DNA of 64,000 nucleotides from Escherichia coli (GCF_003790525.1 NZ_CP033635.1), one strand, 5' to 3'. Shown: positions 22,991-41,612, numbered from the stretch's first letter. Translations and numbers: made by a program. Notes: generated by a model not told the origin, from the sequence alone.

Positions 22991-23426
22991 CATTTTCTGT
23001 CCTTTGTACTACGACCATTTCCTGTTATTTGAATCAATTCAATATCGCTAGGATAAGATAATTCATAACCGTAAAGTAACCGACGCCAGACAAGAGTTGA
23101 TAACTTAGATGTTATCTGACGCAGAAGAAAAGAGAGAATTTTTGACTTTTATCAAAGACCCATTTGAACTCTTGTTTTCATGTTTTTGCATAATTGAATT
23201 TATTAAATATATTTCTCGTCAAATAACATGTTAAACGTGAGGTATATCTCCATGCTTATCATTAAAACATTAACAAACATTATGATTTAATGATTAAAAC
23301 TAATGGCAATATAAGTCAATTTAATCGCCGCATTTGTTGACAATTGCCAACATCATTTTATAACCTGATATTAAATCCAGCCGGTACATTTTTTCTAATT
23401 ACTTATGAATAAGCAGGAGGATGAGG

Positions 23427-24803
23427 ATGTCTACGAAATTATGGGGCGGACGTTTTGATATGCCAACAAATAAACTCGTTGAACAATATAATGCAACTAT
23501 CACGCTGGAGCAGCGCCTATGCCCCTTTGATATTCAAGGAAGCATAGTTCATGCCACGATGTTAGGACGTCAGGGAATAATCACACAGGATGAAGCCAAT
23601 ACAATTATTAGAGGTTTGAGACAAGTAAGTAAAGAAATTGAAGACGGCCAATTCATTTTCGATACTGTAGATGAAGATATTCATATGGCCATTGAAAGAC
23701 GGATGACTGAAATTATTGGCCCTGTTGGTGGTAAACTCCACACGGGGCGAAGTCGTAATGATCAAACCACTGTTGATTCTAAAATGCATATGCGAGCAAT
23801 TATCCGTGAAATTCAAGAGGATATTACCAACCTGCAAAAAATAATAATTAACAAAGCAGAAAACAATATTAATGTCATCATGCCAGGCTATACTCATTTG
23901 CAAACAGGTCAGCCCATTCTTTTATCTCACTGGATTATGGCATATTACTGGATGTTGCGTCGTGACTGGAATAGGTTTGAAGATCTGTATCAACGGATGG
24001 GAGAATGCCCTTTGGGGGCAGCGGCTCTCGCCGGTACGACATTCCCTATTGATCGTAATTTTACGGCTCGTGAACTTGGTTTTGATAAGCCAACTGAGAA
24101 TAGTATTGATTCTGTCAGTGACCGCGACCATATGGTCGAATTCACCGCGGCAGCAGCGATGTGTTTTATGCATCTAACTCGCCTTTCAGAGGAACTGATT
24201 TTATTCTCTAGCCAAGACTTTAAATTTATTGAACTTTCTGATGACTTCTGTACAGGATCCAGCATCATGCCGCAGAAAAAGAACCCTGATGTGGCGGAAA
24301 AAATGCGTGGTAAAGGTGGGAGAATGTATGGAAATCTGATGGCCATGCTGACTATTATGAAAGGCATACCGCTAGCGTATAATACAGACATGAGCGAGGA
24401 TAAAGAGCAGGTCTATGACTCAATGGATACTCTACAGGCCAGCTTAAGAATAATGGCACCTATGATCGAAAAAATGGTTATCCTTGCCGAAAATACGCGT
24501 GCAGCAGCCGCTCGAGGATTCTCGAATGCAACAGATATGGCCGATTATCTGGTCCGTAAAGGTATTCCTTTCAGAGAAGCTCACCATATTGTTGGTAGTG
24601 CAGTAAATTACTGTATTAAACATAAAAAAATGTTAGAAGAGCTTACTATGGAAGAATTCTCCACATTTGATAATAAAATAGAAAAAGATATTTATGAAAG
24701 TATTTCTCTGGAGGCTTGCATTAAGGCCAGGATGTCTTATGGTGGAACCGGACCTGATGCTGTCAAAAAACAAATAGAGATTGCAAAATCACTTTTAAAA
24801 TAG
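23427..24803 (+). CDS. argininosuccinate-lyase-family (fumarate lyase superfamily) enzyme, AT-rich paralog
   Basis: ORF 23421..24803; N-terminal LWGGRF and central GSSIMPQKKNPD signature; AGGAGG Shine-Dalgarno 6 nt before the second ATG. Confidence 0.8.
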   Translation: MSTKLWGGRFDMPTNKLVEQYNATITLEQRLCPFDIQGSIVHATMLGRQGIITQDEANTIIRGLRQVSKEIEDGQFIFDTVDEDIHMAIERRMTEIIGPVGGKLHTGRSRNDQTTVDSKMHMRAIIREIQEDITNLQKIIINKAENNINVIMPGYTHLQTGQPILLSHWIMAYYWMLRRDWNRFEDLYQRMGECPLGAAALAGTTFPIDRNFTARELGFDKPTENSIDSVSDRDHMVEFTAAAAMCFMHLTRLSEELILFSSQDFKFIELSDDFCTGSSIMPQKKNPDVAEKMRGKGGRMYGNLMAMLTIMKGIPLAYNTDMSEDKEQVYDSMDTLQASLRIMAPMIEKMVILAENTRAAAARGFSNATDMADYLVRKGIPFREAHHIVGSAVNYCIKHKKMLEELTMEEFSTFDNKIEKDIYESISLEACIKARMSYGGTGPDAVKKQIEIAKSLLK

Positions 24804-24867
24804 TTAAGAATTATAATGTTTAAGATTCCCCGGATATTATATCCGGGAATATCTTTGAGGTTGAAAA

Positions 24868-39900: not shown

Positions 39901-40243
39901 GATCGTTACGTACTTGAAAAGTGGATCAACAAGAGGGTTCAACGAGACTGGGGAGTTATATTTCTTTCTCAAGGTCCGGCATTTATCTCTTCCACATGAA
40001 ATCTCGATATAAAGTCAGACACGGATGTCCTACTGAAAGCGGGGGGAAGTATGGTGATAGAGGTCAGCGGGAACCTATCCATAAAAGTCACTCATTACAC
40101 TAAAAAATATGTGCATATTATTTGCGTGCAATTAAATTTTGCAAAATCGAATTAGCATAATTTTTTTTGATAGAAGTCAAATAAACATAATGGAAAAAGT
40201 TTAAATATTTATATTGTATAAACTTCAGACAAAAGGAGGAGTT

Positions 40244-41275
40244 ATGAATAAAATAAAAGGTATAACAGTAATGGCAGCCTTCGCATTGTGTATAGGATAT
40301 GCTCACGCTGAATCTCAAACGCCAATACGCCTTGTAATTCATGGTGGAGCTGGCACCATAACAAAAGATACTATTACACCTGAACAAGAAAAACAATACA
40401 GAGAAAAGTTAACAGATGCACTAAATGCTGGGTATGCTGTGCTTAATAGTGGAGGAAGTAGCCTTGATGCTGTTCAGCGTGCAATTAATGTTATGGAGGA
40501 CTCTCCCCTCTTCAATGCTGGAAAAGGCGCTGTCTTTACTCATGATGGCAAAAACGAACTTGATGCTGCAATTATGGATGGAAAAACCAAAATGGCCGGA
40601 GCCGTTGCAGGAGTGACGACCATAAAAAACCCTATAAACGCTGCTTATGCAGTTATGACTAAAAGCCCTCATGTATTAATGATCTCTAATGGTGCGGAAC
40701 TATTTGCAAAAGAGCAAGGCTTAGTTATGGTTGAGCCAGCATATTTCAAAACTGATTTCCGTTGGCAACAGCTACAGAACGCTTTAAAAGACGAAAAAAT
40801 AACCCTTGATCATAATGGTAAATCAGCATCTCTTTTACTCCCCCCAAAGAACTACGACTATAAATATGGAACTGTTGGAGCAGTCGCGTTGGACAAAGAT
40901 GGTAATCTGGCAGCTGGAACATCAACAGGAGGTATGACAAATAAACGTTACGGACGCGTAGGTGACTCGCCAATAATTGGAGCAGGAACCTATGCCGATA
41001 ATAATACCGTTGCTGTTTCTGCTACAGGTACTGGAGAAATGTTTATTAGAACTTCAACTGCATACAATATTGCTGCTCAGGTGAAATATAAAAATACACC
41101 ATTGAAAGAAGCAGCTCAAAATGCGCTTGATGAAGTTAAAAACATTAATGGTAGTGGTGGTGTCATTGTTCTAGATAAGAATGGTAATTATACTATGAGT
41201 TTCAATACAGAAGGGATGTATCGTGGAACTATCGGCAACGATGGTAAAGCTATCGTATCAATTTATGAACAATAG
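40244..41275 (+). CDS. secreted plant-type asparaginase / isoaspartyl peptidase (Ntn hydrolase)
   Basis: ORF 40214..41275; signal peptide after MNKIKG; GGAGT…TSTGGM…GDSPIIGAG motifs; AGGAGG before the ATG at 40244. Confidence 0.8.
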   Translation: MNKIKGITVMAAFALCIGYAHAESQTPIRLVIHGGAGTITKDTITPEQEKQYREKLTDALNAGYAVLNSGGSSLDAVQRAINVMEDSPLFNAGKGAVFTHDGKNELDAAIMDGKTKMAGAVAGVTTIKNPINAAYAVMTKSPHVLMISNGAELFAKEQGLVMVEPAYFKTDFRWQQLQNALKDEKITLDHNGKSASLLLPPKNYDYKYGTVGAVALDKDGNLAAGTSTGGMTNKRYGRVGDSPIIGAGTYADNNTVAVSATGTGEMFIRTSTAYNIAAQVKYKNTPLKEAAQNALDEVKNINGSGGVIVLDKNGNYTMSFNTEGMYRGTIGNDGKAIVSIYEQ

Positions 41276-41612
41276 ATAAAATATTTTATACATCGTCTTG
41301 CCCTTAAGGCCCATTTTAAAAGCGGGCCTTTATTTAATAAATATTCTTAACGCCTCCTTATTTCACAGCTAAAAGAAGAGTAATTCTTAGACTCATTAAC
41401 CGTCTCTCTACCGAGACGCTTACCCATATCCAGCCCGTACCCTGCAGAAATACCGCGATGTATAGCGTTTCTGTGTCATGGTGAAAAGTACAGGAGGAAA
41501 TTATAAATTCTGGGAATATCCCTGGTTATAACATTTTGTAATACATTAAGTGATATCATTATTTATGATGTAAAAAGGGGCCTGCAATAGCCCCTGAAAA
41601 ATCAGAAAACCT

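Follow-up and report, generated by a model that had tools for sequence, protein, structure and literature searches.

A probable mosaic metabolic island with multiple Dcu-type carriers and aspartate/fumarate enzymes in Escherichia coli and on IncFIB plasmids

Why should a single stretch of the Escherichia coli chromosome accumulate four carriers of the DcuA/DcuB family and one of the DcuC family, together with two AspA-like lyases, an ArgH-like lyase, an ansB-type asparaginase, an IaaA-like hydrolase, a PepT-like peptidase, a racemase and three regulators? These genes lie downstream of cobU in a 64,000-nucleotide (nt) stretch of NZ_CP033635.1, hereafter the window, whose coordinates are used throughout. 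An earlier reading made from the DNA alone (the sequence-only reading) saw in them one dedicated anaerobic route from asparagine, D- or L-aspartate or peptides to fumarate and succinate. All 15 genes of its inventory are intact open reading frames (ORFs) located as it had described, NCBIfam and homology searches agree with the family proposed for each of them, and its gene count was correct. We propose, as the probable answer, that the region is a mosaic metabolic (fitness) island of parallel, independently regulated entry routes, and that it also travels on IncFIB plasmids.

The most trivial answer would be that the canonical aspA-dcuA, dcuB, dcuC, iaaA, pepT and ygeA loci were misplaced by assembly. 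Only ansB could prompt this suspicion, as its product resembles the canonical protein (98% amino acid identity). In blastp comparisons with the proteins of K-12 (NC_000913.3) the other products are 35-57% identical to AspA, DcuA, DcuB, DcuC/DcuD, IaaA, PepT, ArgH and DcuR, while 5,412 of the 5,426 complete E. coli genomes have a separate core locus, yggM-ansB-yggN. Moreover, the same arrangement recurs in many independent complete genomes and plasmids. A misplacement was accordingly rejected, and we give it practically no credence.

The accessory nature of the region had been anticipated, and at least 80% of positions 23000-42000 is indeed found in only 130 of the 5,426 genomes. Likewise, the suspicion of horizontal acquisition is upheld by nearest relatives in Citrobacter, Sutterellaceae, Morganellaceae and Edwardsiella, and by the presence of these genes on plasmids. 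The region has a lower G+C content (43.1%) than the adjacent core stretch (47.1%; whole window 45.9%), with intergenic spacers at 31-35%, but to call it far more AT-rich than the core was an overstatement. At third codon positions the G+C content (GC3) runs from 27% in the dcuR-like and iaaA-like genes to 57% in ansB, whose overall G+C content is 51.6%.

These differences bear directly on the possibility of one co-ordinately regulated anaerobic pathway, acquired as a unit, that would turn asparagine, D/L-aspartate and peptides into fumarate and succinate. Such a pathway would fit the observations that every module has Dcu-type carriers or enzymes that form or consume aspartate, that the block travels between chromosome and plasmid in one piece, and that an aspA duplication within the island equips the racemase operon, which suggests functional integration. 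However, the nearest relatives differ between the cassettes (Citrobacter/Budvicia, Sutterellaceae, Escherichia, Morganellaceae/Edwardsiella and the type found in the Shigella SRL pathogenicity island), as do their GC3 values, and scars of insertion sequences (IS), TnpB and a group II intron separate them. Each cassette also has its own regulator with no motif shared between promoters, and sub-modules stand alone, the racemase-dcu pair without aspA in 359 genomes and other parts on plasmids without cassette A. Given that origins, regulators and composition all differ, parallel routes collected in one place describe the region better than one pathway; the single dedicated route is not borne out in that form, and we consider it unlikely. 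Convergence on aspartate and fumarate holds for the aspA-dcuA-ansB and racemase-dcu-aspA modules. It is not apparent for the ArgH-family lyase, which has no obvious place in an asparagine/aspartate route and belongs to a separate conserved lyase-Dcu-Dcu-GntR cassette.

Cassette C comprises aspA1, dcu3 and ansB, all on the minus strand. AspA1 scores 680 bits against NF008909 (cut-off 510) and 645 against the equivalog model TIGR00839 (cut-off 681), and it retains the signature GSSxMPxKxN loop in the form GSSIMPGKVNP; it is predicted to deaminate L-aspartate to fumarate. Its closest relatives outside E. coli are aspartases of Duodenibacillus (86-89%) and Sutterella (77-79%). On Duodenibacillus contigs aspA is followed by a gene for a Dcu carrier of 444-445 residues, beside the fumarate reductase genes frdAB. 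This shared order and identity mark aspA1-dcu3 as a Sutterellaceae-type unit, and since nucleotide identity to the Sutterellaceae pair is only 70-75%, its direct donor is unsampled. Behind a 487-nt spacer of 32% G+C, ansB has been joined downstream of this unit. It is an Escherichia-type gene and not a foreign one (about 95.5% nucleotide identity to core ansB over query positions 2293-3366), and the near-universal core locus makes it an extra copy. The homology covers the ORF and the terminator (30696-30716) and ends just inside the start codon, so that the native promoter is not included. Together the three genes appear from their sequences to be a chimeric set of periplasmic asparaginase, aspartate carrier and aspartase. 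An Rfam scan gave no match to an AspX-like small RNA (sRNA).

All four DcuA/DcuB-family carriers of the region are full-length and score 382-620 bits against TIGR00770/NF006927 (cut-offs 331-369). A published study describes DcuA as an L-aspartate/succinate antiporter in fumarate respiration (PMC10634366), and Dcu1 to Dcu4 are putative aspartate/succinate or fumarate/succinate antiporters.

A second block, comprising genes for a LysR-family regulator, a racemase, Dcu4 and AspA2, is present at 99% identity or more in 222 genomes. The PCNTAH and GCTE catalytic-cysteine motifs of the racemase align with those of 3S7Z and 1JFL; the former, a putative aspartate racemase of Salmonella, is its best solved relative. 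The protein also scores as the cysteate racemase CuyB in NCBIfam (250, cut-off 190); no gene for the CuyA sulfo-lyase is annotated in the window, and the absence of this partner makes aspartate the more economical substrate. In the Shigella SRL island, D-aspartate racemisation and growth on D-aspartate require orf8 (racemase) and orf9 (DcuA-like), and these two genes suffice for both (PMC6980539). The SRL primers published there match the copy of E. coli O104:H4 exactly, and it was against this copy that the amino acid identities of the LysR-family regulator, the racemase and Dcu4 were measured. The O104:H4-type module is a variant of about 85% nucleotide identity, and it is this version that occurs, without aspA, in the 359 further genomes mentioned above.

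Over a segment that starts 50 nt before the ATG and ends with the stop codon, the aspA2 gene is 99.3% identical to aspA1 in nucleotide sequence. Thus, the racemase operon gained an aspartase of its own by duplication within the island. In NZ_CP098201.1 aspA2 is intact (466 residues), and in the RefSeq record of SMS-3-5 it is cut by an IS3 element at the site corresponding to window position 63914, where the window is uninterrupted. By analogy with the Shigella allele, for which growth on D-aspartate was demonstrated (PMC6980539), the window module would constitute a self-contained operon leading from D-aspartate to fumarate. Elsewhere in the window, at 19761-21993, an IbrB-like gene with an internal stop and an IbrA-like gene of the phosphoadenosine phosphosulfate (PAPS) reductase type adjoin the TonB-dependent receptor gene; O104:H4 has this pair, too, together with its SRL-type racemase module.

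Cassette A, which combines an ArgH-like lyase with Dcu1, Dcu2 and a GntR/FCD regulator, came as the greatest surprise. Homologs of the lyase at 60-93% identity are found in Citrobacter (four species, 90-93%), Budvicia, Limnobaculum, Enterovibrio, Photobacterium, the Campylobacter lari group, Helicobacter, Parasutterella, Sutterella and the Negativicute Anaerosinus. A gene for a Dcu1/Dcu2-type carrier lies directly downstream in 21 of the 23 distinct loci at 60% identity or more that have enough flanking sequence, and in none of the 58 loci whose lyase is at most 58% identical. The Dcu-linked lyase genes come from five bacterial families or more, and a GntR/FCD regulator often accompanies them; the cassette retains it in Citrobacter, Budvicia, Anaerosinus and some Sutterella. 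The complete four-gene cassette occurs in Citrobacter, Budvicia and Anaerosinus, and the cassette also recurs in Sutterellaceae and Campylobacter. Only one E. coli plasmid, and none of other genera, was found to carry a member of this clade.

At eight Sutterellaceae and Campylobacter (lari group) loci a gene of the PrpD/MmgE family is added, which is not seen in the enterobacterial cassettes; the vicinity of the Campylobacter locus also includes genes for an adenylosuccinate-lyase-like protein, a DcuC-family protein and RidA. The pairing of PrpD/MmgE with a lyase recalls the epimerase-plus-C-N-lyase logic of iminodisuccinate degradation.

Could the ArgH-like protein simply be a spare argininosuccinate lyase (ASL) whose Dcu neighbourhood has no functional meaning? 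Its score on the argH equivalog model is 615 bits (cut-off 279.5), and it is closest to solved ASL structures. A multiple alignment of 17 clade members with 26 canonical ASLs, including those of duck (delta2-crystallin, whose numbering is used here), Thermus and E. coli with solved structures, showed that the catalytic residues R115, N116, T161, H162, S283, K289, N291, E296 and K331 are kept in all 17 members; Y323 is likewise conserved. Against this stand the genomic contexts: E. coli retains its housekeeping argH in argCBH, one Sutterella metagenome-assembled genome has a second, more canonical-looking homolog besides the Dcu-linked copy, and in the loci examined the gene is never beside arg genes, in contrast to its persistent association with Dcu carriers.

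Residues that are invariant, or nearly so, in canonical ASLs are also replaced in this clade, namely Q328 by serine (16/17; Q in 26/26 canonical ASLs), K/R325 by threonine (16/17; K/R in 26/26) and D33 by glutamate (17/17; D in 25/26), along with L297 by lysine (16/17). Further substitutions uniform in the clade are S29T, V119T, a threonine at residue 120, K/R165T, A166G, F240H and A278D. Mutagenesis of delta-crystallin is said to have probed S29, D33, K325 and Q328 as substrate-binding residues. Our literature search for ASL residues in contact with the arginine half of the substrate found only a description of K325 as an active-site residue, a lysine paired with E296 (PMC2779060). The loss of K325, combined with the gain of a lysine beside E296, looks like a remodelling of the pocket. 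An ordinary spare ASL is, in our view, less likely than not. Our own reading of these residues is that the protein would be a fumarate-releasing C-N lyase with a leaving group other than arginine and a substrate that Dcu carriers can transport. We tentatively suggest, at somewhat below even chances, that cassette A may be a mobile catabolic system for an N-substituted aspartate (a fumarate adduct of a size that a Dcu carrier could take) and not for argininosuccinate. If this is true, the cassette would provide a new source of electron acceptor for fumarate-respiring gut bacteria, including Citrobacter, Sutterellaceae, Campylobacter, Anaerosinus and this E. coli lineage.

Cassette D pairs a PepT-like M20 peptidase with a carrier of the DcuC family; the two genes are translationally coupled, the stop codon of the first overlapping the start of the second by 4 nt. 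The carrier falls below the equivalog cut-offs of NF007937 (441 against 513) and NF007317 (327 against 623). It belongs to a subfamily with members at 75-82% identity in Edwardsiella, Proteus, Providencia, Pragia and Budviciaceae and at 56% in Aliivibrio, compared with about 43% to canonical DcuC. The same peptidase-carrier pair, again overlapping by 4 nt, occurs in Proteus mirabilis and Edwardsiella ictaluri, and its genes are immediate neighbours in Aliivibrio fischeri. Such conservation across genera indicates that the coupling is functional. The substrate is perhaps an acidic tripeptide or conjugate, and that the pair supplies aspartate from peptides is only a guess.

The remaining members of the set are a DcuR-like response regulator, preceded by a 978-nt spacer with short ORFs only, and the IaaA-like hydrolase. 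The latter contains a GTVGAV autoprocessing motif and scores 346 on the equivalog model NF007589 (cut-off 567). A signal peptide at its N terminus, which ends in AHA, points to a periplasmic site of action, in contrast to K-12 IaaA, which is without a signal peptide. In addition to the scars listed in Table 1, IS256 and IS4 remnants lie between the cassettes.

In light of these contextual connections, the following scheme can be envisaged. At least six independently acquired cassettes would have accumulated at a CP4-44-type site downstream of cobU, each joining a Dcu-type uptake carrier, or else a hydrolase of the periplasm, with an enzyme whose product is L-aspartate or fumarate. In the periplasm, AnsB and the secreted IaaA-like protein would free L-aspartate from asparagine and possibly from beta-aspartyl peptides, and Dcu3 and Dcu4 would import L- or D-aspartate in exchange for succinate or fumarate from inside the cell. 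The racemase would convert D-aspartate to L-aspartate, which the Sutterellaceae-type aspartase, present in two copies, would split into fumarate and ammonium. Core fumarate reductase would then reduce the fumarate, with succinate leaving through the antiporters, and cassettes A and D probably feed the same pool as further entry points. The substrates and fluxes of this scheme, like any anaerobic regulation of it, are what we infer from the established roles of AnsB, DcuA, AspA and the SRL module.

Positions 1-63914 of the window are about 99.98-99.99% identical to the chromosome of SMS-3-5 (NC_010498.1), with a handful of differences comprising a few single-nucleotide polymorphisms and indels, and for positions 23000-42000 the match to SMS-3-5, and to several further complete genomes, is about 100%. 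Core DNA makes up the left 16 kb, with yeeJ, shiA, amn, yeeN, yeeO, cbl, nac, ldtA, cobTSU and three tRNA-Asn genes. Next to cobU, on its right, follow an IS4 fragment and a frameshifted gene for a yoeA-like TonB-dependent receptor, a junction common to 1,790 genomes including K-12, which identifies the site as a CP4-44-type variable region. Past this junction a long mosaic of cassettes and mobile-element debris extends beyond the end of the window. Its dcuR-ansB segment is found in 196 genomes. In a pangolin isolate, from an unrelated host, the arrangement that follows cobU is identical, pseudogene scars included.

The distance from the three tRNA-Asn genes to the start of the island is 3.4-7.7 kb, and no integrase that would point to a tRNA-associated integrative island is annotated in the window. 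Each of these genes is within a repeated segment of 85-145 nt (8201-8305, 10003-10144 and 12410-12551), the segments being 89-100% identical to one another; asn-tRNA islands could potentially recombine or integrate there.

The conjugative IncFIB/IncI plasmid pWP4-S18-ESBL-07_1 carries a colinear block (Table 1) with the TonB receptor gene, the ibrAB-like genes, the whole first block of the island and the mgtC/nucleoside hydrolase/LacI/MFS (major facilitator superfamily) module. Three or four other IncF plasmids hold shorter versions, some without cassette A. The direction of transfer between plasmid and chromosome has opposing signs, in that the TonB receptor gene is intact on the plasmid whereas the cobU-yoeA junction is chromosomal and widespread. 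The divergence between chromosome and plasmid is about 2.2% over 17437-39687 and changes abruptly to 0.1-0.5% over 39671-50475, a step that sits at the group II intron scar. Accordingly, the parts of the shared block on either side of this scar differ in their recent history, which fits recombination at this point.

Between the chromosomal and plasmid copies of the focal genes there are 119.5 synonymous and 37.5 non-synonymous changes. The pooled ratio of non-synonymous to synonymous change (pN/pS) of 0.096 shows that these genes are under purifying selection. This observation bears on another explanation, namely that the region is decaying cargo of a degraded mobile element without current function. 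The flanks do hold many pseudogenes, IS fragments, remnants of colibactin genes and the frameshifted TonB receptor gene, and aspA2 is disrupted by IS3 in SMS-3-5. However, all 15 focal ORFs are intact in the window, their catalytic motifs are kept and the pN/pS is low, which makes mere decay very improbable.

Several points nonetheless weigh against a mosaic of functional, separately regulated entry routes. A tblastn search with DcuS found no DcuS-like sensor kinase ORF or remnant anywhere in the window, leaving the DcuR-like regulator an orphan that may, hypothetically, be driven by cross-talk from core DcuS. A scan for FNR boxes (TTGATN4ATCAA, one mismatch) gave 6 matches against 4.7 expected, which is not significant; three FNR-like matches lie in island promoter regions (23142, 35407 and 40167). 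The 11-mers shared between ten island intergenic regions are only AT-rich chance matches and the duplicated aspA leader. The link of the ArgH-like and PepT/DcuC-like cassettes to aspartate and fumarate would be one of analogy only, and the surroundings are full of decayed genes. Finally, the island is at least 99% identical across about 130-220 genomes, and this near-identity among chromosomal carriers is compatible with inheritance in few lineages and hitch-hiking, as opposed to selection of the island as a unit. On balance, we still consider the mosaic island of parallel routes the probable interpretation.

Table 1. Positions and relationships of the genes and other features of the island in the window.
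Feature	Coordinates	Strand	Remarks
ArgH-like C-N lyase (cassette A)	23427..24803	+	WP_000105004.1; TIGR00838 615 bits (cut-off 279.5); 43% to K-12 ArgH
Dcu1, DcuA/DcuB-family carrier (cassette A)	24868..26184	+	about 35-36% to DcuA and DcuB; immediately 3' of the lyase gene
Dcu2, second carrier (cassette A)	26300..27616	-	about 35% to DcuA/DcuB; 50% to Dcu1
GntR/FCD-family regulator (cassette A)	27770..28426	+	family by NCBIfam
Orphan DcuR-like response regulator	29405..30130	+	NF007750 313 (cut-off 262); 57% to K-12 DcuR; 34% G+C
ansB, Escherichia-type extra copy, periplasmic L-asparaginase II (cassette C)	30692..31770	-	ORF 30724-31770, range includes terminator; 98.3% amino acid identity to K-12 AnsB
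Dcu3, DcuA-type carrier (cassette C)	32258..33592	-	55% to K-12 DcuA; 82-83% to Duodenibacillus ortholog
AspA1, aspartate ammonia-lyase (cassette C)	33748..35148	-	54% to K-12 AspA; 88% to Duodenibacillus ortholog; upstream of Dcu3, as in Sutterellaceae
PepT-like M20 peptidase (cassette D)	36014..37270	+	38% to K-12 PepT; NF009920 555 (cut-off 293), TIGR01882 364 (286)
DcuC-family carrier (cassette D)	37267..38628	+	44% to DcuC, 39% to DcuD; TIGR00771 380 (cut-off 187)
Junction scars	38681..39720		TnpB fragment; group II intron RNA 38948-39236 (Rfam RF02001, RF01998); truncated maturase 39274-39720
IaaA-like N-terminal nucleophile (Ntn) hydrolase, isoaspartyl peptidase/L-asparaginase	40271..41275	+	52% to cytoplasmic K-12 IaaA
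Small DUF5339 protein	41613..41891	-	adjoins the IaaA-like gene and travels with it on plasmids
LysR-family (HypT-like) regulator (second block)	59297..60196	-	divergent from racemase operon; 80% to SRL-type orf7 homolog
Two-cysteine Asp/Glu-type racemase (second block)	60536..61255	+	88% to SRL-type orf8
Dcu4, DcuA-type carrier (second block)	61314..62612	+	95% to SRL-type orf9; 49% to K-12 DcuA
aspA2 with 50-nt leader (second block)	62785..64000	+	ORF from 62835, runs off the window; duplicate of aspA1, downstream of Dcu4
Block colinear with IncFIB plasmid pWP4-S18-ESBL-07_1 (NZ_AP022088.1)	17437..50475		megablast 97.8-99.9%, a few IS-sized indels

Immediately before the first block, pseudogene fragments at 21995-22953 represent a thioesterase, the precolibactin peptidase ClbP and a galactonate dehydratase, the last being 72% similar to the dgoD copy at 55736-56030; these fragments suggest the former end of a colibactin (pks) island and earlier rearrangements. 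That dgoD copy belongs to a complete dgoR-dgoK-dgoA-dgoD-MFS operon for D-galactonate within the island, at 53222-57944, presumably present besides the core dgo operon. The plasmid version differs at this point, where ilvD-like and DapA-like genes follow. An inverted repeat of 144 nt, 97.9% identical between its arms (49514-49657 and 58028-58171), flanks the segment with IS and dgo genes, and its arms are close on the plasmid; it could mark a composite transposon-like unit. A further accessory module at 44906-49207 encodes an MgtC/SapB-family protein, a nucleoside hydrolase, a LacI-family regulator and an MFS metabolite/H+ symporter, and is 99.9% identical between chromosome and plasmid. An Rfam scan of the long AT-rich spacers recovered only group II intron domains, the isrC and STnc490 sRNA families and tRNAs, and no riboswitch. 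The isrC match (150 bits, 51872-51994) lies beside a copy of ISEc31, and the STnc490 match (122 bits, 58604-58727) overlaps a degenerate IS200/IS605 tnpA.

Work on gut colonisation by Enterobacteriaceae is currently concerned with aspartate-driven fumarate respiration and with the nitrogen shuttle of DcuA. Here, a natural E. coli lineage and conjugative plasmids have multiplied this capacity through genes from unrelated gut anaerobes (Sutterellaceae), rewired with a gene of Escherichia and a duplication inside the island, and the carriers of the island, the plasmid carriers and the non-carriers offer a ready-made isogenic test of whether additional capture of asparagine, L-aspartate or D-aspartate is an advantage in colonisation. 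Metabolic fitness islands as a kind, most of the parts and a characterised close relative of one module were already known. What is new is the scale of paralog accumulation in one E. coli lineage and its plasmids, the cross-family chimera of Sutterellaceae aspA-dcuA with Escherichia ansB and an internal aspA duplication, and a Dcu-linked ASL-like clade, recognised here, whose pocket is altered. Annotation pipelines label members of this clade argH, though another function is likely.

No account of the complete island turned up in our literature searches, only one of the D-aspartate module of SRL; comparisons with known systems can nevertheless be drawn cassette by cassette. With the variable region next to cobU, typified by CP4-44 of K-12, the locus shares the cobU-IS4 fragment-TonB receptor junction and isrC, which we take to be part of CP4-44. 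The content differs: CP4-44 has flu and toxin-antitoxin genes, whereas metabolic cassettes that are also borne on IncFIB plasmids occupy the site here. Cassette C corresponds in its families and its aspA-then-dcuA order to the aspA-dcuA operon and AnsB of K-12, which serve in the use of L-aspartate and asparagine, the nitrogen shuttle and fumarate respiration. It is set apart by the low identity of AspA1 and Dcu3 to their K-12 counterparts, their closeness to Sutterellaceae and an ansB joined without its native promoter. The second block has the gene order and orientation of Shigella flexneri SRL orf7-orf8-orf9, with the protein identities given in Table 1, and is similarly island-borne and adjacent to IS200 and inovirus-Gp2-type genes; it is a distinct allele (about 85% nucleotide identity) with an aspartase appended downstream. 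AbgAB and AbgT combine an M20 peptidase with a carrier of the ion-transporter superfamily for an acidic conjugate. Cassette D resembles this pairing in coupling the gene of an M20 hydrolase to that of a carrier, conserved across genera, and differs in that its families are PepT-like and DcuC. Lastly, the lyase of cassette A is homologous over its full length to the ArgH/delta-crystallin family (PDB 2E9F, 1TJ7 and 1K7W) and has all of its catalytic residues, but its clade is separate and horizontally spread, is tied to Dcu carriers and GntR/FCD regulators instead of arg genes, and has replaced Q328, K/R325, D33, L297, V119 and F240.

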